A stretch of DNA of 64,000 nucleotides from a virus (Duplodnaviria; Heunggongvirae; Uroviricota; Caudoviricetes). Location of the stretch: IMG/VR virus record IMGVR_UViG_2654587674_000003; one strand, 5' to 3'. Shown in pieces: positions 11,983-22,356 of the stretch. The notes beneath the pieces were generated by a model. That model was given only the letters and a program-made list of their open reading frames with translations, made no database searches and was not told where the DNA came from. The translations under genes were made by a program, and so were the position numbers. Position 1 is the stretch's first letter, and each line of letters opens with the position of its first letter.

Positions 11983-12173
11983 AACATTAATATCATTCCT
12001 GATAACTGTTTGGAGGACATGATGCTTATAGCTTTAAGTGCGATCCACCAGCCATCTGTGAATGAGATTGGCCTGTTCTATGTGTTGGTTTTCGGGGCGT
12101 TGGCGCTACTTGAGCTTGGTATTGAGCTTTTCGCAGTGCTTATGTTTTGCGTCACGATTCTGGGGAAATTTTG

Positions 12174-12797
12174 ATGGTGAAACGTGTTTTGAAAATTTAC
12201 ATCGCGGGGCCGATGACTGGTTATCCAGATTACAACCGTGCGGCGTTTAATGCGAAAGCGAGCGAGCTGATGTCTGAAGGGCATATCGTTCTGAATCCAG
12301 CTGTGTTACCTGGTGGCCTTTGCCAGAGTGAATACATGGATATTTGCCTGGCAATGGTGCGTTCTGCTGATGCGATCTATCTGCTCAATCAATGGGAAGA
12401 ATCGGTTGGTGCTCGCGCAGAGCACGCGCTGGCTGAAAAGCTGGGGCTGACTGTAATTTATGAGTCACAAACCAACATTGAATGCCAGGTTGCTCCGCAT
12501 ATTTACCGTGAACTGGTAAATGCGTTACGTGATGTTGCTATTGAATGTCACGGCACGGATCAGCTTCGCGCCCGCTTAAGCAAAACCCTTTCCAGTTACC
12601 TGTCTTTGGCTGAAGGATACAACCTCCGGCAGCGGAGAATGGTCAAATTAATCACGCGTTTATCTCAATCCCTGGCAAATGCCGAACCAACTAATCCGCT
12701 ACCTAATGACGCAATGAATTACCTGAAGTCATGCGGCGTTGTTTCTGAAGATGCAGTTCGTTTTGTGGAGTTTATGTCTCAGAGGATGTCAGCGTGA
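12174..12797 (+). CDS. DUF4406-like (nucleoside 2-deoxyribosyltransferase-fold) protein
   Basis: ATG at 12174 with ggggaa RBS; N-domain KIYIAGPMTGYPDYNRAAF...IVLNP; C-terminal 35-aa motif shared with ORF 20740..22356. Confidence 0.45.
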   Translation: MVKRVLKIYIAGPMTGYPDYNRAAFNAKASELMSEGHIVLNPAVLPGGLCQSEYMDICLAMVRSADAIYLLNQWEESVGARAEHALAEKLGLTVIYESQTNIECQVAPHIYRELVNALRDVAIECHGTDQLRARLSKTLSSYLSLAEGYNLRQRRMVKLITRLSQSLANAEPTNPLPNDAMNYLKSCGVVSEDAVRFVEFMSQRMSA

Positions 12798-13111
12798 GCT
12801 GGCGGGGATGGGGAAGGGCGGAAATCATGATACTCCGCCAGTGCGCCGGGACTATGACAGTCGTGAGTATTGGGAGGCTGATCGGGCGTACCGGTAGTGC
12901 TGTCAGAACCAAAGCGCGGCAACTGCGGATCTGCATGATTCTGAAAGGAGACTTTCACCCGTCAGCCAAATACCGGCAGGGCGATATAGAACTGGCACGG
13001 CAGCTTCATCGGTGTGGTGTTCCCCGCCGTGAGATCGCAGAAAAACTCGAAATGCCCTTGAGCATGATTAATCAGTACGTTTATTTCGAAAGGAGAGTAC
13101 ATGAAGTCTGA
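12794..13111 (+). CDS. hypothetical protein
   Basis: 105-aa ORF, overlapping stop and start with both neighbours. Confidence 0.35.
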   Translation: MSWRGWGRAEIMILRQCAGTMTVVSIGRLIGRTGSAVRTKARQLRICMILKGDFHPSAKYRQGDIELARQLHRCGVPRREIAEKLEMPLSMINQYVYFERRVHEV

Positions 13112-13604
13112 AGGTTTAACGCCAGCACAACTGGCAGAGCGTAACGCTGAGTATGTAACGGAAATTTCCCGACTTGAGAAAGAACGCTCGGCGCTGGCGG
13201 CGGAGAATGAACTGGCTCGTAAGGCAGTTCAGGCATTCTGCGATGTTGTTGGCGACAACACCGAGGTTATCGCTGAGGAGGTTGGGCGAGATGGCGTTCT
13301 GGTTATTTTGGAGGCCATGAAGGCAACAGGAAATATGCCAGCCACCGATGCTTTCCTGGCTGAAATTCGTGCGGAGGCTCGCAACGAGGGGATTAACTAT
13401 ACCGCAAGCCGTCTTGCTGCTGCTTTCAACCACGGATTTATCAATAAGTCTTTACGTGAAGTTTTCGACGTTACACGCATGATTCTGTCAGCGAAAGAAG
13501 AGTTGGCTAATGAACCGCACCCGATTGATGGCCTGTCCGGTGAATATGCGGAGAAATCCCTTGAAGAATGGGCGGAACAGATTCGCAAAGGAGCTGACAA
13601 GTGA
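13101..13604 (+). CDS. coiled-coil protein, paralog family member 1 (Ead/Ea22-like)
   Basis: 167 aa; ALAAENELARK coiled coil and PATDAFLAEIRAEAR motif; C-terminal EQIRKGADK; four paralogs downstream. Confidence 0.5.
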   Translation: MKSEGLTPAQLAERNAEYVTEISRLEKERSALAAENELARKAVQAFCDVVGDNTEVIAEEVGRDGVLVILEAMKATGNMPATDAFLAEIRAEARNEGINYTASRLAAAFNHGFINKSLREVFDVTRMILSAKEELANEPHPIDGLSGEYAEKSLEEWAEQIRKGADK

Positions 13605-14011
13605 AGAAGATGATTTTTGTCGCGGCATTGTTGGTGAATATCCAACAAGTGCATGCTTCAGCAGCTATTGTAGCCTCTACCGCCGCGACTACGGCTGCTG
13701 TAGCTGCTGCGAACTCTGCGAATATCGCAAACCAACAGGCACAGCGTGCTGCTAATGCATCAGCCAGCGTTCACTCAATCACCATTAAGAGCAGTAAGCA
13801 AAATCTGGGATTCATAACGTGCGGCACGCGTTCTAATGAAGCTGTAGGTTCACTTGGATGTACGGTATATGGGGGTAGTGAGAATAGAGAAATTCCATGG
13901 AAAACGTGGCCCGGATACGTTCTTGGCTCGAAGCTCCCGGCCAGTTATGAAGTAAACGCCGTATCGTTTGATCACTATAACGGCGTGGCAACGGTCTATT
14001 TTGCATATTGA
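13601..14011 (+). CDS. exported Ala-rich protein, function unknown
   Basis: 136 aa with signal peptide MKKMIFVAALLVNIQQVHA. Confidence 0.4.
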   Translation: MKKMIFVAALLVNIQQVHASAAIVASTAATTAAVAAANSANIANQQAQRAANASASVHSITIKSSKQNLGFITCGTRSNEAVGSLGCTVYGGSENREIPWKTWPGYVLGSKLPASYEVNAVSFDHYNGVATVYFAY

Positions 14012-14805
14012 GGCTCCGCATGAAATTCTCCAAATTTTCTGAGTTGGTGAATCGTATTTTGTCCAACAACCACAGCCATCGTCGCGATATGGATGTAACG
14101 ATCGTTGTTCATTCGCCTGGCAGCATTGGTTCAACACCCTCAGTTGAGGTTCAGTCAATTCACGCTGGTTTTGATTGGGATTCCGGGAAAGTGCTGATTT
14201 TCCCAGCACAGCCACTGACCACGCTAACACCAGAACAGATTACTGATATTACTGATAGTGTGCGCAAAGGTCAGTCCTGGCACGCATATCAGGAATACAA
14301 GAAGCATAAAGAGCAGTTGGAAAAATTATCGATTGAACTTGATACCGCAAAACAGCGCATTGCAGAGCTGGAGGGTAATCGCGCGGCGCTGGCTGCGGAG
14401 AATGCGAGACTGAAGGCGATATGTGAGGATCGCCGCACGTTCATTATGAATGGCGTGCAGCTTGGTTTTATCAAGGTGCCAACAGTGGAAATAGATCCAG
14501 CTCTTGAAACAATTCGTATCGCCCTATCACCACAAAAAACCACTCCTGCGACCGACACTTTCCTAGATGAAGTGAAGACTGAAGCACGCAAGGAGGGCGC
14601 TTACTTTGTGGCGAATAGAATGCTGGCTGCCTGGGAAGCTGGTTTTATTGATGATACTGCGAAGAACGCCGCGGATATTGCCCGGATGATTCTTACCTCT
14701 ACTGAGTTTATGGCTAATGCGCGGGAAGGCGATTTTGACCGCTCATTCTCTGATGGTGTTCTCGAAGATATCGCTGAACAGCTTCGCAAAGGAGGCAGCC
14801 AGTGA
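14008..14805 (+). CDS. coiled-coil protein, paralog family member 2
   Basis: 265 aa; LEGNRAALAAENARLK, ATDTFLDEVKTEARKEG, C-terminal EQLRKGGSQ. Confidence 0.5.
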   Translation: MRLRMKFSKFSELVNRILSNNHSHRRDMDVTIVVHSPGSIGSTPSVEVQSIHAGFDWDSGKVLIFPAQPLTTLTPEQITDITDSVRKGQSWHAYQEYKKHKEQLEKLSIELDTAKQRIAELEGNRAALAAENARLKAICEDRRTFIMNGVQLGFIKVPTVEIDPALETIRIALSPQKTTPATDTFLDEVKTEARKEGAYFVANRMLAAWEAGFIDDTAKNAADIARMILTSTEFMANAREGDFDRSFSDGVLEDIAEQLRKGGSQ

Positions 14806-15443
14806 GCGAGCTTTACTATCAGACGTTACGTGAACGTTTTTCACCGAAACCAGCGCCTAAATGCTCTGTTTGTGGCGAGGAAATGTCAATGCAGCGCATA
14901 TCTGGATCACATGTTGTTTATGCCTGTTCCGGCATGGAGGACGACGGATGCTTCAAAACTGGACGAACTTATGCTGACGAGCATTACAAAAAATCGCGCA
15001 TAACAGTAGTTGATGATAGCGATCCTGATGTGATTGAACTGCTGGAAGAGAACATGGAGATGGCTCTAACGCTTGAGAAGCTGCGTGTTGAGCTGGAGGC
15101 TGCTAAACAGCGTATTGCCGAATATGAAAGCAATTGCGGGGCGATGGTGGCGGAATGCCAAAGCAAAAAAGCAGCTCTTGAGGCAATTCTTAGCCATTGC
15201 CCAATTAATCATCCAGATATAGACATCGCATGTATAGCGAACATCGCTCATAACGAATTAGGCGGGGCGAAAAGCACTACATCTAAGGCATACCTTGTAG
15301 AAATACAGGCACAAGGGGTGGAGGCATTCGCTTTGACGATGCGCGATACCGGAGATGATCCATTTTTTGATTCCGTTGCTTCTGCTTGCGCGGATGCAGC
15401 TGATAGGTTCGCTGCCCAGCTTCGAAAAGGAGGCAAACAGTGA
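14802..15443 (+). CDS. coiled-coil protein, paralog family member 3
   Basis: 213 aa; N-terminal CSVCGEE Cys pair; C-terminal AAQLRKGGKQ with embedded aaggagg SD for the next gene. Confidence 0.5.
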   Translation: MSELYYQTLRERFSPKPAPKCSVCGEEMSMQRISGSHVVYACSGMEDDGCFKTGRTYADEHYKKSRITVVDDSDPDVIELLEENMEMALTLEKLRVELEAAKQRIAEYESNCGAMVAECQSKKAALEAILSHCPINHPDIDIACIANIAHNELGGAKSTTSKAYLVEIQAQGVEAFALTMRDTGDDPFFDSVASACADAADRFAAQLRKGGKQ

Positions 15444-15688
15444 GTAATACCGCACGACTACAGCTTGGTTTTTTACCGCTATCAAAAACCATCGTGTTGG
15501 CAAAAATGCGTGACTTAGGGGATGGAACAAAACGTCGTGTCGGCAATGATCGCGGTCGTGATGTAACCAACGAGGCCGCACAACTCGTTTGGCATCTAGT
15601 CATGGCTGAAGGCGGTGAAATTAATTGGGAGCTGGATGATGGTTCTCGCATGGTATTAAAGGCAGAAAAGCAGGAGCCACCACAGTGA
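15440..15688 (+). CDS. hypothetical protein
   Basis: 82-aa ORF, overlapping stop/start. Confidence 0.3.
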   Translation: MSNTARLQLGFLPLSKTIVLAKMRDLGDGTKRRVGNDRGRDVTNEAAQLVWHLVMAEGGEINWELDDGSRMVLKAEKQEPPQ

Positions 15689-15978
15689 ATATCGACACCA
15701 CGATAACGATTGATACGGCCCTAAATACCGGTCTGGCACTTCTCGGTTGGCTTTACATCATGTCCAGTACATGGCGATGGCTGGGTTCCATTTTCCTGAA
15801 ACAGTGGAAAAAACGGCGCAAACAGGAATTACGCCAGAAGGCATTAGAAGCGTTCTATGACGCATTTGAACTTAGCCGCATTGAACCAGGCACAACAGCC
15901 AGGATAGCGACAAAAGGCGACCTGATGATAGTGATGTTCCGACAGGAGAAAGCAAATGGCAGCAAAGCGAATGACTAA
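15685..15978 (+). CDS. hypothetical membrane-associated protein
   Basis: 97-aa ORF with hydrophobic N-terminus. Confidence 0.3.
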   Translation: MNIDTTITIDTALNTGLALLGWLYIMSSTWRWLGSIFLKQWKKRRKQELRQKALEAFYDAFELSRIEPGTTARIATKGDLMIVMFRQEKANGSKAND

Positions 15979-16180
15979 TCGCGAACTTGTTGATGCCGCG
16001 ATTGAACTTGCTGGCGATTTTTATTCCATGATGGGGTACACGCATCGCCCCGGCTTCAAATATTGGGAGTCTCCGCACCCGCAAGAGCAACGGGTATTTC
16101 AAATGGCCTGTCGCGCTTTTGAAGTTATTCGCGGTTCTGATGTGATGGACGCGGTTGCTGATTTGGAGGATGAAGAGTGA
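15956..16180 (+). CDS. hypothetical protein
   Basis: 74-aa ORF. Confidence 0.3.
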   Translation: MAAKRMTNRELVDAAIELAGDFYSMMGYTHRPGFKYWESPHPQEQRVFQMACRAFEVIRGSDVMDAVADLEDEE

Positions 16181-16488
16181 ACACAATTAAAGAAATGCCG
16201 GTAGAACGTGATGAATATGGCTGCTGGACACATCCGGAGTATGAAAAGTTTTGCGCAGGTCGTGAATATATATCCACTGAGGAATTTGACGCCTGGATGA
16301 AGGAAAATAATCTTCAGTGGACTATTCGCAGTATGGATGAAGATGATTTTGGTCTGGACGCAGCTGGTCCCGATATTGCCGCCTGGGAACCGGAGCGACC
16401 AGAGGGTGAAGGCTGGTTTGTTGGCTCTATTCATGACACTGAAGATGGTCCGGTTTGTATCTGGCTGCGGGAGAAGGTTGCCGCATGA
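16177..16488 (+). CDS. hypothetical protein
   Basis: 103-aa ORF, ATGA overlap with ppp. Confidence 0.35.
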
Positions 16489-17177
16489 TCCAGGCTATGC
16501 ATGAAATGAATTTATATAGCCGTATTGATGGTTCTGGCTACAGAAACATATGGGTTGTTGGTGATCTGCATGGTTGCTACACCAGACTGATGTCCGAACT
16601 CCATCGTGTGGATTTTGACCCGACGCAGGATTTACTGATATCGGTTGGCGACCTTATCGATCGCGGTACTGAAAATGTCGAATGTCTGGAACTATTGCAG
16701 ATGCCCTGGTTCAGGGCAGTAATGGGGAACCATGAGCGGTTGATGCTTGATGCGTTAAGTCCTGATGGCAACGTGAATAACTGGCTAATGAATGGCGGAC
16801 AATGGTTCTTCATGCTGGACACTGATCAGGAAATATTAGCCAAGGCGCTGGTGGAGCTGGTAAAGCGTCTGCCATATATCATTGAGTTGAACACCGGGCA
16901 TGAAACTATCGTTATAGCCCATGCCGACTATCCAGGTGGAGAGTACCAGTTCGGTAAGGATGTGTCGTTTTTTGATGTTGTCTGGTCGCGCAGTCGCGTC
17001 GGTGATTCGATAGATGGCATTGGTGGAGAAATCACAGGCGCAGATCGCTTTATCTTTGGGCACACACCGGTACGAAGACCAAAAGCATACTGGAATCAGC
17101 ACTACATAGACACGGGCGCGGTTTTTTGCGGAAATCTGACGCTAATGCAGGTGAAGGGAGGGCAGCTTAAAGTCTGA
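16485..17177 (+). CDS. ppp: Ser/Thr protein phosphatase (lambda PPase-like metallophosphoesterase)
   Basis: motifs [20 protein letters not shown]; ATG at 16485 overlapping upstream stop. Confidence 0.75.
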
Positions 17178-17203
17178 TCAAATCATTTACGCACTCAAAA
17201 TGC

Positions 17204-17233
17204 GTTAGAACATTGATTTTAGTTTTCTAACAT
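17204..17233. promoter_or_regulatory. TTTTCTAACA box pair followed by TATTAT
   Basis: gttagaa-N13-ttttctaaca-tattat, about 45 nt upstream of ORF 17275. Confidence 0.4.
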
Positions 17234-17274
17234 ATTATTTTACCGCTCGGAACAAAACAGAGTCGGTATACATT

Positions 17275-18270
17275 ATGAGTGCAATAATCACACCTCATTT
17301 CGTGAACGGAGCTGGTGTGGCTGTCTTTCCGGTAGACAAGCCCACCAGTAACTACATTGGCGCAGGCCGCCGTTTCATTATCTCCCCACTTCCGCGTGAA
17401 CAGGCTGAAAACACGCCAGATGGCGTAGTGGATCTGAACTATTCGCTGGTTGCCAACCAGTCTCTGAAACCGTTTTTTCAAAGCGAGCGCGTATTTAACG
17501 CGTTGGGCGGTGAAGATTCGCTTGTTCATTGGGTAAGTTCCAATATCCACGATTGCCAGGCGCACGATAAGCGCGATTGCAGCCACCAGCTAACCACTCA
17601 TTTCTATAACGGCTCTGCCGTTCGCCTGTGCTGGAAGCATGATGCGGAATACATGATGAAGGGGTACAGCAAGCTGGACGACCAGTTATCCCTGAATCGT
17701 GCCAACTGGGTTATGAACTGGGCTGCGAGCGAGTTAAAACTACCGCCAGAACGCGATCTGAGCATGGTTGAACTCACTTTTTGGGCCATTCGCCGGAATC
17801 TGAAAGATGAGCTGCCAGATGAAGCCGGTCGCATTGCATTTTGTCAGCCAAAAACTGAAATCCCTACCGGTACGCTGAAAGAATCAGATATCACCTGGGA
17901 GCACAGTACCCGCGAGCTGGTGGACATAACCGCAGAGCAGATCGTCAACCTGTCTGTAGATGAGGATTCCGGCCTGCTTTATATGCGCCGACCAAAAGCG
18001 GTCCTCGGTAAAAGCCCGGCTTATCTCCGGTTTGTGGTTTCTCGTCCGTGCATCGGATGCGGTGGCAAAGTTAACCACCCGTTCATGTACCGCGCCCGCT
18101 CGTTAAACGAACACGACCGCTGGGCTGTTCCTCTTTGCGATGACTGCGCCAGAAGCGCAGAAAACGATGTCCGGGCATGGGAAAAAGCACATGGCATACG
18201 CCTTTACGTAGCCGCTAACCAGCTTTTTGACTTCGCCATCGAGCGCGGAGTGATCACTTTCAATAACTGA
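17275..18270 (+). CDS. hypothetical protein with C-terminal Cys cluster
   Basis: 331 aa; CIGCGG...CDDC motif. Confidence 0.45.
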   Translation: MSAIITPHFVNGAGVAVFPVDKPTSNYIGAGRRFIISPLPREQAENTPDGVVDLNYSLVANQSLKPFFQSERVFNALGGEDSLVHWVSSNIHDCQAHDKRDCSHQLTTHFYNGSAVRLCWKHDAEYMMKGYSKLDDQLSLNRANWVMNWAASELKLPPERDLSMVELTFWAIRRNLKDELPDEAGRIAFCQPKTEIPTGTLKESDITWEHSTRELVDITAEQIVNLSVDEDSGLLYMRRPKAVLGKSPAYLRFVVSRPCIGCGGKVNHPFMYRARSLNEHDRWAVPLCDDCARSAENDVRAWEKAHGIRLYVAANQLFDFAIERGVITFNN

Positions 18271-18274
18271 TGAG

Positions 18275-18976
18275 GTGGATCAAAAAATGAAAGAACGCGG
18301 GATGATTTTTAACGATGAGATGGTCAGGGCCATCCTCGAAGGAAGGAAGACGCAGACTCGCCGACCTGTAAAAAATGTCAGGGCCGATAACTGCCTGGTT
18401 ATCCGTAAACCGACAAAGAAACGCAATGGTATCTATACCCACGTTATGGATGCACCTGAACATGGTTTATGCCCGTTCGGTAACGTTGGTGATCGCATAT
18501 GGGTCCGTGAGGCGTGGGCGATATTAGGCAATGAGGATGGTTGCAGTGTGGACTGGAACGACAACCTTTGTCGTGGCGATGAGAAGAACGCAGCAAGGAT
18601 TTATCGGGCCAGTTGTGAGCAAAAGCCGGGTGATTACGGCTTGTGGTCGATACCCGATGATGCCGACTGGAAACCTCACACTGTGAATGAAAAATTTGAT
18701 GGCGGGTGGTGTCCATCAATTCACATGCCGCGCTGGGCATCGCGCATTCTTCTGGAAATTACCAACGTGCGCGTTGAGCGGTTGAACGATATCAGCGAAT
18801 GCGATGCAAGGGCTGAGGGCGCACCAACAGAATCGACCCTCATTGGCGATAAGCATTACCCAAGTTTCCGTAGCCTATGGAAATCAATTTATGGCGAAGA
18901 TAGTTGGAACGCTAATCCTTGGGTGTGGGTAATCGAGTTTAAGCGTATTCAGGGGGCAACCAGTGAGCAAAATTAA
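18275..18976 (+). CDS. hypothetical phage protein
   Basis: 233 aa; N-terminal MIFNDEMVRAILEGRKTQTRR. Confidence 0.4.
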   Translation: MDQKMKERGMIFNDEMVRAILEGRKTQTRRPVKNVRADNCLVIRKPTKKRNGIYTHVMDAPEHGLCPFGNVGDRIWVREAWAILGNEDGCSVDWNDNLCRGDEKNAARIYRASCEQKPGDYGLWSIPDDADWKPHTVNEKFDGGWCPSIHMPRWASRILLEITNVRVERLNDISECDARAEGAPTESTLIGDKHYPSFRSLWKSIYGEDSWNANPWVWVIEFKRIQGATSEQN

Positions 18977-19145
18977 CTATCAAGAACTGCGCGAGGCGGC
19001 GGAACAGGCAACGCAAGATGAATGGGTAGCATATATTTTGCCGGTCATAACGGCATTTATCCTGCGCGCACGTCTGAGGGTAGGCATTGCGGATACTTTA
19101 TTGACTGGCCTGGCGTCTGTCAGGGGCGGGAGAGCATCAGCATGA
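18963..19145 (+). CDS. small ORF with paralog-family N-terminus
   Basis: 60 aa, alternative start; MSKINYQELRE matches the N-terminus of ORF 19552; ATGA overlap with next gene. Confidence 0.3.
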   Translation: MSKINYQELREAAEQATQDEWVAYILPVITAFILRARLRVGIADTLLTGLASVRGGRASA

Positions 19146-19555
19146 GCATCAGAACCTACGCAGTGAATTGCAATGACGCATGGCTAAACACCGAAGGTGA
19201 TGACATCTCCGGCTCATACGTTAAGTACAAAGACCATCAGGAAGTGGTTGCCGCTCTTGAGGCCAGGTGCGCGGCGCTGGCAGCGGAGAATGCGGCGCTT
19301 AAACAGTCGGAGAAGGAATTTAATAACTTCTGTCGTCAGGAGTACTACGGTTGGGAGGACAACTTCACGGAAACCCCAGCTACCGACGCTCTCCTGGCTG
19401 AAGTACGTGCGCAGGGGGTGGATATGGCTCGTAACGCGATGATTGATTTTGTTGATGGTGAAGTTGGGCCAAACAAGAACGTTCCGGGGCTGATTAGAGG
19501 CGCAGAGATATGCGTAAGTATTGCTGAACAGCTTCGCGAAGGAGGCAACCAGTGA
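19142..19555 (+). CDS. coiled-coil protein, paralog family member 4
   Basis: ATG at 19142; ALAAENAALK, ATDALLAEVRAQG, C-terminal EQLREGGNQ. Confidence 0.5.
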   Translation: MSIRTYAVNCNDAWLNTEGDDISGSYVKYKDHQEVVAALEARCAALAAENAALKQSEKEFNNFCRQEYYGWEDNFTETPATDALLAEVRAQGVDMARNAMIDFVDGEVGPNKNVPGLIRGAEICVSIAEQLREGGNQ

Positions 19556-19998
19556 GCAAGATTGATTATCAAAAGCTTCGTGAAATCGCTGAAAAAACAA
19601 AAATTGCTGGTGAAGCACCTGTAATGCCTTTCGATCAGCGAATTAATGCGCTTAACGATTTTATGAAGCACTTTTCGCCAGATATCGCGCTGGCATTGTT
19701 GGATGAACGGGAAAGAAACCAGCAATACATCAAACGCCGCGACCAGGAGAACGAGGATATTGCGCTAACGGTAGGGAAGTTGCGCGTTGAGCTTGAGGCA
19801 GAAAAACAGCGGGCAAAGGATCTGTTTATGGAAAATACTCGGCTTAAGTCAGGTATAGCCGGTCTGATACACCTCGGTATTCGATATGCAGATGTTGATG
19901 TCATGAAAATTGCTGGAGATGCCCAGCTTTCTACCCCATGCACTGACAGCATCATAAACAGCATTGCAACAGGCATTCGCATCAACGGAGGTGAGTAG
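19552..19998 (+). CDS. coiled-coil protein, paralog family member 5
   Basis: 148 aa; LRVELEAEKQRAKDL coiled coil. Confidence 0.45.
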   Translation: MSKIDYQKLREIAEKTKIAGEAPVMPFDQRINALNDFMKHFSPDIALALLDERERNQQYIKRRDQENEDIALTVGKLRVELEAEKQRAKDLFMENTRLKSGIAGLIHLGIRYADVDVMKIAGDAQLSTPCTDSIINSIATGIRINGGE

Positions 19999-20171
19999 TG
20001 CGTGTGGCATGTATTGGCTTGTTACCGTACCCGACTCGTTTTTGGGCTTCTGCGCTAATTGCAAAGCCGTATGTCCTGATGGCTGACAACATCATCCCGG
20101 CACCAAAGCGCCGCCATACCGGTATTGCAGCGGCACGACGAGCAGCAAAGAGACGCAGGAGAGCAAAGCGA

Positions 20172-20348
20172 TGAAAAACCGTAAGGCAAAACGACTTTTT
20201 TTACAGCGACCTGTGCGTGTGGTGGAGCTGGTTATTAGCAACCATAAGATAGCGGTACTCCATCCATTTGGTCAGGTGGCTTTTGCCGCAAAGCGTAAGC
20301 CTACTGCGTCACAGAACAGGCGGAAGAAAGGGTACGCTGTAAGATGAA
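20172..20348 (+). CDS. small basic protein, tandem paralog a
   Basis: 58-aa ORF (not in track) starting MKNRKAK; same N-terminus as the next ORF. Confidence 0.25.
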
Positions 20349-20532
20349 AAACCGTAAAGCAAAGATTCTGTTAGTTCGTAGAAACGCTCCTGGCGTCTGG
20401 CAGTGGGTGAGACTCAGCAACCGACGGATGGGGTTGATGAAATATTACGGGATGATGGATTGTGGTTTTTGCAAAAAGCCCAGCGCGGCGCAAAACCGCT
20501 GGAAAAACCACTTGCGCACTAAAGGAGAGTGA
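20344..20532 (+). CDS. small basic protein, tandem paralog b
   Basis: 62 aa starting MKNRKAK. Confidence 0.3.
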   Translation: MKNRKAKILLVRRNAPGVWQWVRLSNRRMGLMKYYGMMDCGFCKKPSAAQNRWKNHLRTKGE

Positions 20533-20533
20533 T

Positions 20534-20743
20534 ATGGCTATTGCCGCAAGTTACACAATGCATCTCTATTGTGACTGCCGCCAGTGTACGGAAGGTGTAT
20601 ATCCAGTGCCAGACTTCGGTGAGTATATAGGTACGTCATGGGCTGGCTGTGCAAAAGAGGCGCGCAAGGATGGCTGGCGAATAAGCAAAGACAAAACGCG
20701 TGCTTTTGCGCCCGGGCATAAAGTTTTGAGGATTAACAAATGA
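20534..20743 (+). CDS. small Cys-rich protein
   Basis: ATG with aaggag RBS; CDCRQC motif. Confidence 0.35.
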   Translation: MAIAASYTMHLYCDCRQCTEGVYPVPDFGEYIGTSWAGCAKEARKDGWRISKDKTRAFAPGHKVLRINK

Positions 20744-22356
20744 CCACTATTACCAGAGAACAAGCTCTGAAAATTATTGAGGCAGCCGATGAGGTTATTA
20801 GTGCGCTTGCCGGAACTAACGAGGATGTTCACCCTGGTAGCGATAACATGCTACGCCTGTGGGATGACCTGAATGACCGTTACGCGCCGCCGGAAGTTGT
20901 GCGTGAGCTGGCACGAATTGCACTGGCATCGCTGGAAGCAGAACCAGTTAAACGAGTTAACTCAGATCAGATGCGCCGAGTCTGCTTAGAAGCTAATCGC
21001 CATTTAGATAAATATGACGCGATGGCGAAAGAGGTAAATAAGTTGCTTGGACGCATCGCCCCGCCAGCACCGGTAGTGCCTGAAGAAGCAACTCCGGAAA
21101 ACGTAGAAATGCTCTCTGGCTATGTTTCAACGTACAAATTAACCGATAGCGAGCGCGATATTGCTGCCGAAATATGGAACGCCTGCCGCGCCGCCATGCT
21201 TCAGTCCGGAAACTTTCGGGAAAACAAGAATTCGTCAACCAATAATTTTCGGGAAATCGCGGAAACGTCAACCAGCTATCCGGCAATTCCTAGTGAGGTG
21301 TTGTCCGCAATCCTGAAGGTTGCCAGGATTCGTGCCGATTTCGATGATTTTGACGGTGACAGGCGAGGTATCGGTGATTGTCTGGATGAGGCCGAGCAAG
21401 AGCTTATCGTTACCATTAACAAATATGCCAGTCAGTTGGCAGCAGAACCGATAGCGGCTAATGACGTTCGAGAGCAGCAGACAGCCGTTCCGCCAGTTCC
21501 AGAAATACAGGCTGATGTCGCGCAAGCAATTGAAAATCTCAAGCAGAAGTTAGTGGAATGCAATCGCTATAACTACTGCGCAGATGCAGTTAAAGGCGTA
21601 GAGGATGCCAGCCGCGTCTTGGCACTCCAAAATCAAAATATGTCAGCACCGGTAACGCCGGAGGCCATTGAAAACGCAATTGAATATATCCGCAGTATCG
21701 CTTTTCACATCGATGAAGACGATTACCACGGCAAGCATATTGCGTATTTCATGCGACAAGCATTGGCCTGGCTGGAAGGGCATTCATGCAGCGACGACAG
21801 GCTGGGTAAGGCCGACAATCAACCCGCATCTGGTAACCAGGCTGCCGAATCCAATCGCGGTAATGAGTGGACCGGCAATCCTGATATTGATAACGCCATC
21901 ATCATGCTCGACCGCATAGATACGGCGGAAAGTTGCGATGATGACCGTATTGAGGCCGTTAAGGCTGTGTTGCGTAGACTGGCAGGCAACTATCCGGATA
22001 TTCCGGATAGTTCGGTGCCAGCGCCAGGAAAGGGCGTCACCGGTGAACGTATCCGCATTAAGCCGCATGTTTATCGCGAACTGGTTAACCGTCTCCACGA
22101 TACAGCGATCAAGTGTGCTGGCACCCAGCAATTACGAGAAAGAATTAGCCGTGTTTTGGGCGACGTTATTACACCAGATCATCATAAACAAGCCGAGAAA
22201 AGTGGCCTGGAAAGGTGTCGCCTTGAGGCGGCATTAAACATTAAGCCGGGGCATACGCTTGGCATTATTGATGCACTATTGGTTCATAAGATGGCCAGGG
22301 CTTTATTGCCGCTGGTGGCTGAAAAGCATGAGGTGGACCATGCCAACGAAAGCTGA
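20740..22356 (+). CDS. hypothetical protein
   Basis: 538 aa; C-terminal PHVYRELVNRLHDTAIKCAGTQQLRERIS motif shared with ORF 12174..12797. Confidence 0.45.
   Translation: MTTITREQALKIIEAADEVISALAGTNEDVHPGSDNMLRLWDDLNDRYAPPEVVRELARIALASLEAEPVKRVNSDQMRRVCLEANRHLDKYDAMAKEVNKLLGRIAPPAPVVPEEATPENVEMLSGYVSTYKLTDSERDIAAEIWNACRAAMLQSGNFRENKNSSTNNFREIAETSTSYPAIPSEVLSAILKVARIRADFDDFDGDRRGIGDCLDEAEQELIVTINKYASQLAAEPIAANDVREQQTAVPPVPEIQADVAQAIENLKQKLVECNRYNYCADAVKGVEDASRVLALQNQNMSAPVTPEAIENAIEYIRSIAFHIDEDDYHGKHIAYFMRQALAWLEGHSCSDDRLGKADNQPASGNQAAESNRGNEWTGNPDIDNAIIMLDRIDTAESCDDDRIEAVKAVLRRLAGNYPDIPDSSVPAPGKGVTGERIRIKPHVYRELVNRLHDTAIKCAGTQQLRERISRVLGDVITPDHHKQAEKSGLERCRLEAALNIKPGHTLGIIDALLVHKMARALLPLVAEKHEVDHANES

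Follow-up and report, generated by a model that had tools for sequence, protein, structure and literature searches.

The conserved tail of Ead/Ea22-like genes in a D6-like phage-plasmid operon is probably the start signal of the following gene

We analysed a 64,000-nucleotide stretch (the window) of a Caudoviricetes virus, IMG/VR record IMGVR_UViG_2654587674_000003, in which five genes, here called A, B, C, D (split) and E, lie on the plus strand between positions 13101 and 19998. All five belong, as mosaic members, to the known Ead/Ea22-like family (PF13935, phrog_368). Their conserved C-terminal tail is best explained as a dual-coded nucleotide element of about 30 nucleotides (nt) that ends at the start codon of the next gene in a D6-like operon, and we put the probability of this explanation at roughly 70%. 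The block would supply a near-consensus Shine-Dalgarno sequence (SD; AAGGAGG), a 6-7 nt spacer and a GTG start that overlaps the TGA stop (GTGA), and a ribosome ending an Ead protein, or one recruited by the SD, would start the downstream gene through translational coupling by termination-reinitiation. The peptide ...(Q)(L/I)RKGG.Q would then be largely what the block spells in the upstream frame, while the final three residues would be part of the downstream gene's leader and would vary with that gene. The IRIKGE tail, published as the "+GE" motif, would be this element too, except that the start follows the stop by 1 nt.

The junction block in the window and in related loci

In the window, a 28-nt block, CAGCTTCG(C/A)(A/G)AAGGAGGCA..CAGTGAG, is shared by three junctions; in it, a near-perfect SD (AAGGAGG) is set 6 nt ahead of a GTG, and this GTG and the TGA stop overlap. 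When the 28-mer CAGCTTCGCAAAGGAGGCAACCAGTGAG was searched for with at most 2 mismatches, 3 copies were found (at 14779, 15417 and 19529) against 0.00 expected; the conserved junction sequence on which the first-pass annotation had based its proposal is thus present. A degenerate copy, CAGATTCGCAAAGGAGCTGACAAGTGA, stands at the end of A and a sister form, ATTCGCATCAACGGAGGTGAGTAGTG, at the end of E. The encoded tails are QLRKGGSQ in B, QLRKGGKQ in C, QLREGGNQ in D, QIRKGADK in A and IRINGGE in E (A ends in EQIRKGADK and B in EQLRKGGSQ). E ends in NGGE, whereas the RKG(G/A).(Q/K) tails of A-D are a variant that is related to the "+GE" motif but distinct from it; the two classes have (A/C)TTCGCA..AAAGGAG in common at the DNA level. 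GTGA overlaps were found at 13601, 14802, 15440 and 19552, and a TAGTG overlap at 19998. As in coupled gene pairs, the stop overlaps or abuts the start and the SD lies in the upstream open reading frame (ORF) at a functional distance (about 5-9 nt).

An SD within the upstream gene together with a 4-nt overlap is a general pattern across the operon junctions and not a peculiarity of the family. The SD/anti-SD energies of the 20 operon junctions scored ranged from +0.6 to -11.7 kcal/mol, most of them between -4 and -9, and the strongest values in the operon, -11.6 to -11.7 kcal/mol, belong to the starts at 14802, 15440 and 19552. These energies and the GTGA overlaps agree with the earlier proposal that the conserved C-terminal codons carry a strong SD for the overlapping downstream start.

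The same element was then surveyed in 175 related IMG/VR loci, collected with B, C and E as queries; family ORFs were identified by BLASTP, which gave 235 unique 3' junctions. These fell into tail classes RKGGxQ (96), IRIKGE (50), DUF551-type PPQEV(K/N) (41) and NFEGER (4). All 96 RKGGxQ junctions had an NTG start overlapping the TGA (NTGA) and opening an ORF of at least 40 codons, and in 47 of the 50 IRIKGE junctions a start lay within 12 nt, typically as TGAnATG. GGAG was fixed at -12 from the stop in 85/96 RKGGxQ junctions. Its codon phase was 0 in the RKGG and IRIKGE tails and 2 in the DUF551-type PPQEV(K/N) tails, hence one signal is spelled out as different peptides. RKGGxQ and IRIKGE tails are homologous as DNA, with (A/C)TTCGCA[TCA]AAGGAG in common. 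Conservation extends from about -31 up to the start codon and drops directly after it. At NTGA junctions of the same loci, the median SD energy was -11.6 kcal/mol for the family and -6.4 kcal/mol for non-family genes (Mann-Whitney p = 7e-21, for non-independent sequences). The family's version of an SD inside the upstream gene thus appears both unusually strong and unusually conserved.

Codon choice was counted over 50 unique 30-nt RKGGxQ tails. The first Gly codon was GGA in 48/50 and GGG in 2/50, never the common GGC or GGT. The following codon encoded Gly, Ala, Val or Ser, with its first G kept in 47/50, and the last tail codon closed with the base that opens the start codon, a G in 47 tails and an A in 3. 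Meanwhile, the Arg and Ala codons near the SD codons varied freely, with four to five synonymous codons in use.

Outside the surveyed loci, an alignment-based pattern search of genome contigs for related loci returned 250 pattern matches, 0 of which were confirmed. The exact junction pattern gave 4 matches, one of them in E. coli, about the number expected by chance for 19 specified bases in 596 Gb; as the contig collection holds one genome per species, this count says little about spread.

The last three codons, which form the SD-to-start spacer, track the downstream gene. The GNQ spacer went with ead genes starting SKI(N/D)YQ (45/52), ADK/GDK/AGK with the signal-peptide gene (family d4; 13601-14011 in the window; 12/12), GKQ with the SNTARLQ gene (family d11; 15440-15688 in the window; 10/10) and SSQ/SSK with the DUF4752 gene (13/21). 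Among sequences of a single C-terminal domain subtype (identity of 85% or more), ADK was found with d4 in 11/11 cases and SSQ with d2 in 9/9. The conditional entropy of the spacer was 1.27 bits given 9 downstream families versus 1.53 bits given 14 fine classes of C-terminal domain, and the spacer followed the downstream gene at all four junctions of the window. Furthermore, the block G(A/G)GGNANNCA(A/G)TGAG(C/T)(A/G)A was read by the upstream gene in another frame in 19/72 unique instances, giving ...(G/E)A(T/A)SE(Q/R)(N/D) and a stop. One of these cases is in the window, where the non-family gene at 18275-18976 reads the start block of gene D in another frame and ends in RIQGATSEQN.

The first-pass annotation had stated that protein and signal are conserved together. 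Both are indeed conserved, but the statement falls short of what spacer covariation and other-frame reading indicate, namely that the nucleotide element is primary. Judged from these sequence patterns, what is conserved is the translation-initiation region at the nucleotide level, and the peptide is for the most part its by-product. It is improbable that the tail is kept for a protein reason, such as tagging for degradation, oligomerisation or the binding of a partner, with the SD-like codons being incidental. Such a role would fit a tail that is kept across at least 8 unrelated C-terminal domain types and retained in phage lambda without a real downstream gene, as well as the conservation of residues A..Q(L/I)R upstream of the SD; yet the last three residues follow the downstream gene and not the protein, amino-acid changes from Gly to Ala or Val that leave GGAG intact are tolerated, and the rare GGA codon is fixed. 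Moreover, unrelated genes read the same DNA in another frame, and other tail classes spell different peptides around the same AGGAGG.

In lambda (L005, 1340-1365), the end of ea22 retains AAAGGAGAGTGA and closes with atc aaa gga gag TGA, and ea8.5 starts 191 nt beyond this junction. The end of lambda ea22 looks like the remnant of a lost downstream cassette. In four homologs (P0004, P0006, P0041 and P0084), the usual stop is read through and two tails follow in series, e.g. ..LLRKGQSFLRPNFEGER and ..AGIRIKGDAGEQNDEKP; these double-tail proteins look like fusions or frame changes across junction blocks.

Several points weigh against taking the tail as an initiation element of the next gene. Translational coupling at the junctions is inferred from junction anatomy by itself. 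The sampled junctions are related by descent and by recombination or exchange, thus the counts and p-values overstate their independence. The 5' half of the block (GC.G..CAG(C/A)TTCGC) is not accounted for by the SD, and the tail Leu codon, also outside the SD, is CTT in 39/40 unique tails and never the common CTG. The internal motifs ALAAEN and PATDAFLAE are likewise poor in synonymous variation, therefore part of the nucleotide conservation goes back to gene conversion or to an ancestor shared recently; for this reason, less weight was given to invariant codons as proof of selection. In lambda, the GTGA after ea22 opens a 5-codon ORF only, and the tail persists without a downstream gene. Finally, the AlphaFold2 model of gene A (27-sequence alignment) contains a long helix at residues 8-75 with a predicted local distance difference test (pLDDT) score of 71-86 for residues 1-40, but its mean pLDDT of 58 and predicted template modelling score (pTM) of 0.29 are too low for a fold search and for telling whether the tail lies outside the fold.

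The block as a mosaic joint

The DNA on both sides of the block is combinatorial. RKGGxQ tails connect 2 clusters of C-terminal domains with 9 downstream families in 14 combinations, and IRIKGE tails connect 8 clusters with 15 families in 32 combinations. In a three-way alignment, D and its relatives do not differ up to and including ALAAEN; they then carry C-terminal domains that are unrelated except for PATDAFLAE, and become identical again only over the last ~30 nt. The A-type domain is found behind at least 8 different N-terminal modules, the breakpoint lying at ALAAENELARKAV, and the internal motifs ALAAEN and PATDAFLAE are breakpoints too. Short conserved DNA is thus found between unrelated flanks that occur in many combinations, as described for boundary sequences. 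In sequence terms the block marks a mosaic joint: C-terminal domains and downstream genes that are otherwise unrelated have no other conserved DNA between them. The earlier picture of the junction had not considered this. Within a single subtype of C-terminal domain, the spacer codons go with the downstream gene, which would put the breakpoints at or before the SD. Combinatorial flanks that reconverge at the block fit both the homology-driven mosaicism of temperate phages (PMC3945230) and the boundary-sequence idea (PMC3029335). The block probably serves as a short-homology crossover point for cassette shuffling.

One could go further and regard the block mainly as a short-homology recombination joint for swapping C-terminal domains or downstream cassettes, with the SD as a passenger or merely tolerated. 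We hold this to be the less probable account, although part of the evidence points to it. The conservation of ~30 nt reaches far beyond the SD and ends exactly at the module boundary, the spacer codons that travel with the downstream gene imply crossovers inside the block, and its combinatorial flanks and the conserved motifs that are also breakpoints belong to the same picture; mosaics of temperate coliphages are mainly homology-driven (PMC3945230), and the boundary-sequence concept is established (PMC3029335). What recombination leaves unexplained is the invariant GGA, the fixed distance of 6-7 nt to the start, the 96/96 overlaps and an SD stronger than that of the controls. In general, a mismatched block of 20-30 nt would also be a poor substrate for most recombination systems. 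A recombination joint is nevertheless compatible with a dual-coded initiation element and does not exclude it.

A combined role can be offered only tentatively, in which the ~30-nt 3' block would be a portable "plug-and-play" junction, at once a conserved translation-initiation cassette and a short-homology crossover site. If so, an accessory gene recombined behind an Ead/Ea22 gene would be translated at once, and the family would act as an adaptor, shared by lambdoid prophages and P1/D6-like phage-plasmids, for the turnover of gene cassettes. Conserved boundary sequences at phage mosaic joints, long postulated, would thereby gain one of their few concrete examples.

The five genes and their operon

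All five genes match phrog_368 at E values of about 1e-39 or lower (A, 6e-39). PF13935 (Ead_Ea22) is matched above its gathering score of 27 bits by C (49.5 bits), E (79.5 bits) and the N-terminal fragment of D (35.7 bits). A, B and the C-terminal fragment of D have no Pfam match; they match phrog_368/614/492 at E <= 1e-21, and their C-terminal domain is common to PF13935-bearing proteins. The C-terminal domain of A has 3939 database relatives at E <= 1e-5, many of which are 237-residue proteins with a PF13935 N-terminus. Between A and B, 35% identity extends over 157 residues (E 5e-20) and includes the non-coiled C-terminal domain, while the other pairs among the five genes give E values of 1e-8 to 1e-3. 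A similarity that consists of low-complexity coiled coil only is thus ruled out by the non-coiled A/B alignment and by the profile matches of all five. E shares 59% identity with lambda Ea22 over its N-terminal 87 residues (BLASTP, E 2e-26), and the closest homolog of C (P0001, 98% identical) is named ead/Ea22-like. RefSeq likewise names the equivalents in near-identical plasmids "ead/Ea22-like family protein". An NCBIfam search gave no matches, and no solved structures matching B or E by sequence were found.

The alignments show the three-part build of the family, in which a coiled coil links a short N-terminal segment to a variable C-terminal domain, and C-terminal domains are swapped between members; A and B have other N-terminal modules or none. 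The motifs that the first-pass annotation took as shared, ALAAEN and PATDAFLAE(I/V)R, are clear in A, B and D, whereas in C and E the former is degenerate and the latter weak. Its array of five coiled-coil paralogs consists of true paralogs but is not contiguous. A and B are separated by the unrelated signal-peptide gene at 13601-14011, and C and D by 3.5 kb of other genes. For B, a start at TTG 14008 had been assumed; ATG 14020 is likelier, as called by the Prokaryotic Genome Annotation Pipeline (PGAP) in the related plasmid pGF4-B (L001), and is used in Table 1.

A split or frame-changed member had been suspected at 18963 and 19142, and alignment to intact relatives shows that gene D is one. 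The frameshift is not at ~19140, where the two ORFs merely abut; the lesion is a 1-base-pair (bp) deletion ~100 nt upstream. Intact relatives have 226 and 228 residues, and the window lacks one G of their GGG run (TTTTGCC-GGTCAT). The shifted ORF stops at TGA 19143-19145 and, together with an in-frame ATG at 19142, forms an ATGA overlap (19142-19145) with an SD energy of -7.4 kcal/mol at this ATG. The ATGA comes from the middle unit (AGCATG) of an in-frame AGCAT(C/G) hexamer array, which is also present alongside intact GGG, so the restart codon is older than the deletion. PGAP annotates the equivalent of the C-terminal coding sequence in two of the related records (L003 and L004). The 137-residue C-terminal part of D may still be made by reinitiation.

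Of the complete E. coli records, 20 (7 of chromosomes and 13 of plasmids) carry the deleted allele (GG), against 208 records with intact GGG; the deleted allele occurs with different downstream C-terminal parts. It is very hard to see in this a sequencing error or a programmed ribosomal frameshift in place of a mutation. The lesion does lie within a short G run, the two ORFs do overlap by ATGA, and RefSeq does annotate the 60-residue product as a protein; against this, an identical deletion in 20 independent records with varied C-terminal parts indicates a heritable allele and no error, and the 208 intact records mean that the shift is no family feature. For a programmed -1 frameshift, neither a shift conserved in relatives nor a slippery heptamer was found, the site TTG CCG GTC being without X XXY YYZ. 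Both explanations were rejected on account of the 20-record allele and the missing slippery site. The block at the start of gene D agrees with the D-E junction in spacer, start and first codons. In complete E. coli genomes, copies with 95% identity or more to the segment 18960-19210, which covers the N-terminal part of D, lie at 93 prophage sites on chromosomes and at 158 sites on plasmids, which points to recent exchange between lambdoid prophages and P1/D6-like phage-plasmids.

The window backbone is that of phage D6, a P1-related phage-plasmid (99% identity over 20 kb), and the closest matches to the region itself are E. coli plasmids of 89-95 kb of the D6-like type. From 12.1 to 22.4 kb, ~20 genes are tightly packed on the plus strand, mostly with 4-nt overlaps (GTGA/ATGA) or gaps of a few bases, and the 12.5 kb covering them contain 5 promoter-like sites versus 15 expected. 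It is a long, promoter-poor, polycistronic operon of early or accessory genes in a D6-like phage-plasmid. The region is a variable accessory operon 3' of ref, with homologs of ppp (metallophosphoesterase) and pdcB (DUF968) inside. D6 has two Ead/Ea22-like genes, which occupy the same two slots as the five copies of the window.

Other genes of the operon show reuse as well. The products of 12147-12797 (a DUF4406/phrog_5781 protein) and 20740-22356 (538 residues) have in common a 40-residue module, PH(I/V)YRELVN.L.D.AI.C.GT.QLR.R(L/I)S (53% identical, E 2e-12), a further mosaic block reused by unrelated genes. The tandem small paralogs at 20171-20347 and 20344-20532 both start MKNRKAK..., are 37% identical (E 5e-10) and overlap by ATGA. 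The 136-residue product of the gene at 13601-14011 (phrog_8805, E 7e-86) begins like a signal peptide and contains a low-complexity stretch rich in Ala, Asn and Gln.

Table 1. Positions of the Ead/Ea22-like genes, their junction blocks and neighbouring features in the window
Feature	Position	Strand	Description
Gene A, 167 residues	13101..13604	+	Short Ead/Ea22 member: coiled coil and A-type C-terminal domain; phrog_614 2e-54
Junction A to next gene	13587..13604	+	AAAGGAG, 7-nt spacer, GTGA (GTG 13601, TGA 13602-13604); -7.9 kcal/mol
Unrelated signal-peptide-like gene	13601..14011	+	phrog_8805
Gene B, 261 residues	14020..14805	+	Own N-terminal module (phrog_6026), coiled coil, A/B-type C-terminal domain
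Junction block B to C, CAGCTTCGCAAAGGAGGCAGCCAGTGAG	14779..14806	+	SD 14788-14795, GTG 14802, TGA 14803-14805; -11.6 kcal/mol
Leu codon of the tail	14782-14784, 15420-15422, 19532-19534	+	CTT in 39/40 unique tails
Gene C, 213 residues	14802..15443	+	Ead/Ea22-like, Cys-rich N-terminal insert, end AAQLRKGGKQ; PF13935 8e-13
Junction block C to 15440 gene, CAGCTTCGAAAAGGAGGCAAACAGTGAG	15417..15444	+	-11.6 kcal/mol
Unrelated gene starting SNTARLQ	15440..15688	+	phrog_1578
Non-family gene ending ..RIQGATSEQN and stop	18275..18976	+	phrog_874; 14-nt overlap with gene D
Gene D initiation block, GGGGGCAACCAGTGAGCAAAA	18952..18972	+	-9.4 kcal/mol
Gene D N-terminal fragment, 60 residues	18963..19145	+	Family sequence to residue 27, then out of frame; PF13935 1.6e-8 over residues 2-29
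1-bp deletion site, gene D	19043..19044		GG; intact relatives GGG (alignment)
Hexamer array AGCATC-AGCATG-AGCATC	19133..19150	+	1-3 copies in relatives
Gene D C-terminal fragment, 137 residues	19142..19555	+	Coiled coil, PATDALLAEVRAQG motif, tail EQLREGGNQ
Junction block D to E, CAGCTTCGCGAAGGAGGCAACCAGTGAG	19529..19556	+	-11.7 kcal/mol
Gene E, 148 residues, lambda-Ea22-like	19552..19998	+	End GIRINGGE; PF13935 4.6e-22
Junction E to 19998 gene, TTCGCATCAACGGAGGTGAGTAGTG	19976..20000	+	IRIKGE-class tail; TAG/GTG 1-nt overlap; -10.8 kcal/mol
Small gene starting MRVACIGLLPY	19998..20174	+	Family d3, frequent partner of IRIKGE-class tails

Comparison with known systems

The locus is otherwise ordinary, with a known family and the arrangement of textbook translational coupling. 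The family, its mosaicism, its multiplicity, the conserved tail and the annotation in near-identical plasmids were all known already, and an SD in an overlapping upstream gene is textbook knowledge. What is added, as a reading of sequence patterns, is that the tail is a portable initiation block, that its last codons belong to the downstream gene and that the block lies at a combinatorial mosaic boundary. This would give a simple answer to a small open point in the Ea22 literature, as the "+GE"/RKGG tail would mainly be the ribosome-binding site and start context of the next gene. Tail conservation in the family should then not be taken as a protein motif, and C-terminal tags, truncations or recoding of Ea22-family genes would be expected to have polar effects on downstream genes. 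It would also clearly document a conserved sequence that coincides exactly with a phage mosaic boundary, which bears on the shuffling of accessory genes between prophages and phage-plasmids.

Ea22 has been described as a protein of three parts, with a coiled coil between the N-terminal segment and a variable C-terminal domain, and its mosaicism is known (PMC10834534). The significance of its conserved C-terminal "+GE" tail was given as unknown (PMC7093339), and the pro-lysogenic activity and tetrameric state of lambda and Stx-phage Ea22 are experimental findings (PMC7093339, PMC10834534). Our search of the Ea22 literature found no paper tying the tail to an SD, and we found no mention of an SD or of coupling in the nuclear magnetic resonance paper or the modelling review. 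Like the Ead/Ea22 family (PF13935/IPR025153; lambda Ea22, P22 Ead, Stx-phage V1-V3), the window genes have an N-terminal MS(K/E)I.YQ.LRE, a coiled coil, interchangeable C-terminal domains and a C-terminal tail that resembles the conserved basic-Gly-(Gly/Glu) one, and they occur as several variants per genome in an early accessory operon of a temperate phage. Unlike those members, they are located on a D6/P1-like phage-plasmid and not in the lambdoid exo-xis region, with five copies in two slots versus two in D6. The N-terminus as defined by Pfam is missing from A and B, the lambda domain of known structure is unlike the C-terminal domains found here (PATDAFLAEIRAEARNEG type), and the RKGGxQ variant of the tail overlaps the next start by 4 nt.

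Translational coupling at an overlapping stop and start (AUGA/GUGA), with the SD inside the upstream gene, occurs in trpB-trpA and in many phage operons. The junctions described here resemble that type in their 4-nt stop/start overlap, in an SD 6-7 nt upstream within the preceding ORF and in their polycistronic setting. They differ in that dozens of unrelated gene pairs have the initiation region in common as a portable, conserved block of ~30 nt, with an SD predicted from the sequence to be stronger than at neighbouring junctions (median -11.6 vs -6.4 kcal/mol).

The concept of short conserved boundary sequences at lambdoid mosaic joints has been summarised with reference to Susskind and Botstein 1978 and Clark et al. 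2001 (PMC3029335). The block is like these sequences in being short conserved DNA at a gene boundary, flanked by unrelated modules in many combinations. In contrast to them, it lies inside a coding region and would double as SD and protein tail, and recombination at it is deduced from the arrangement of its flanks.

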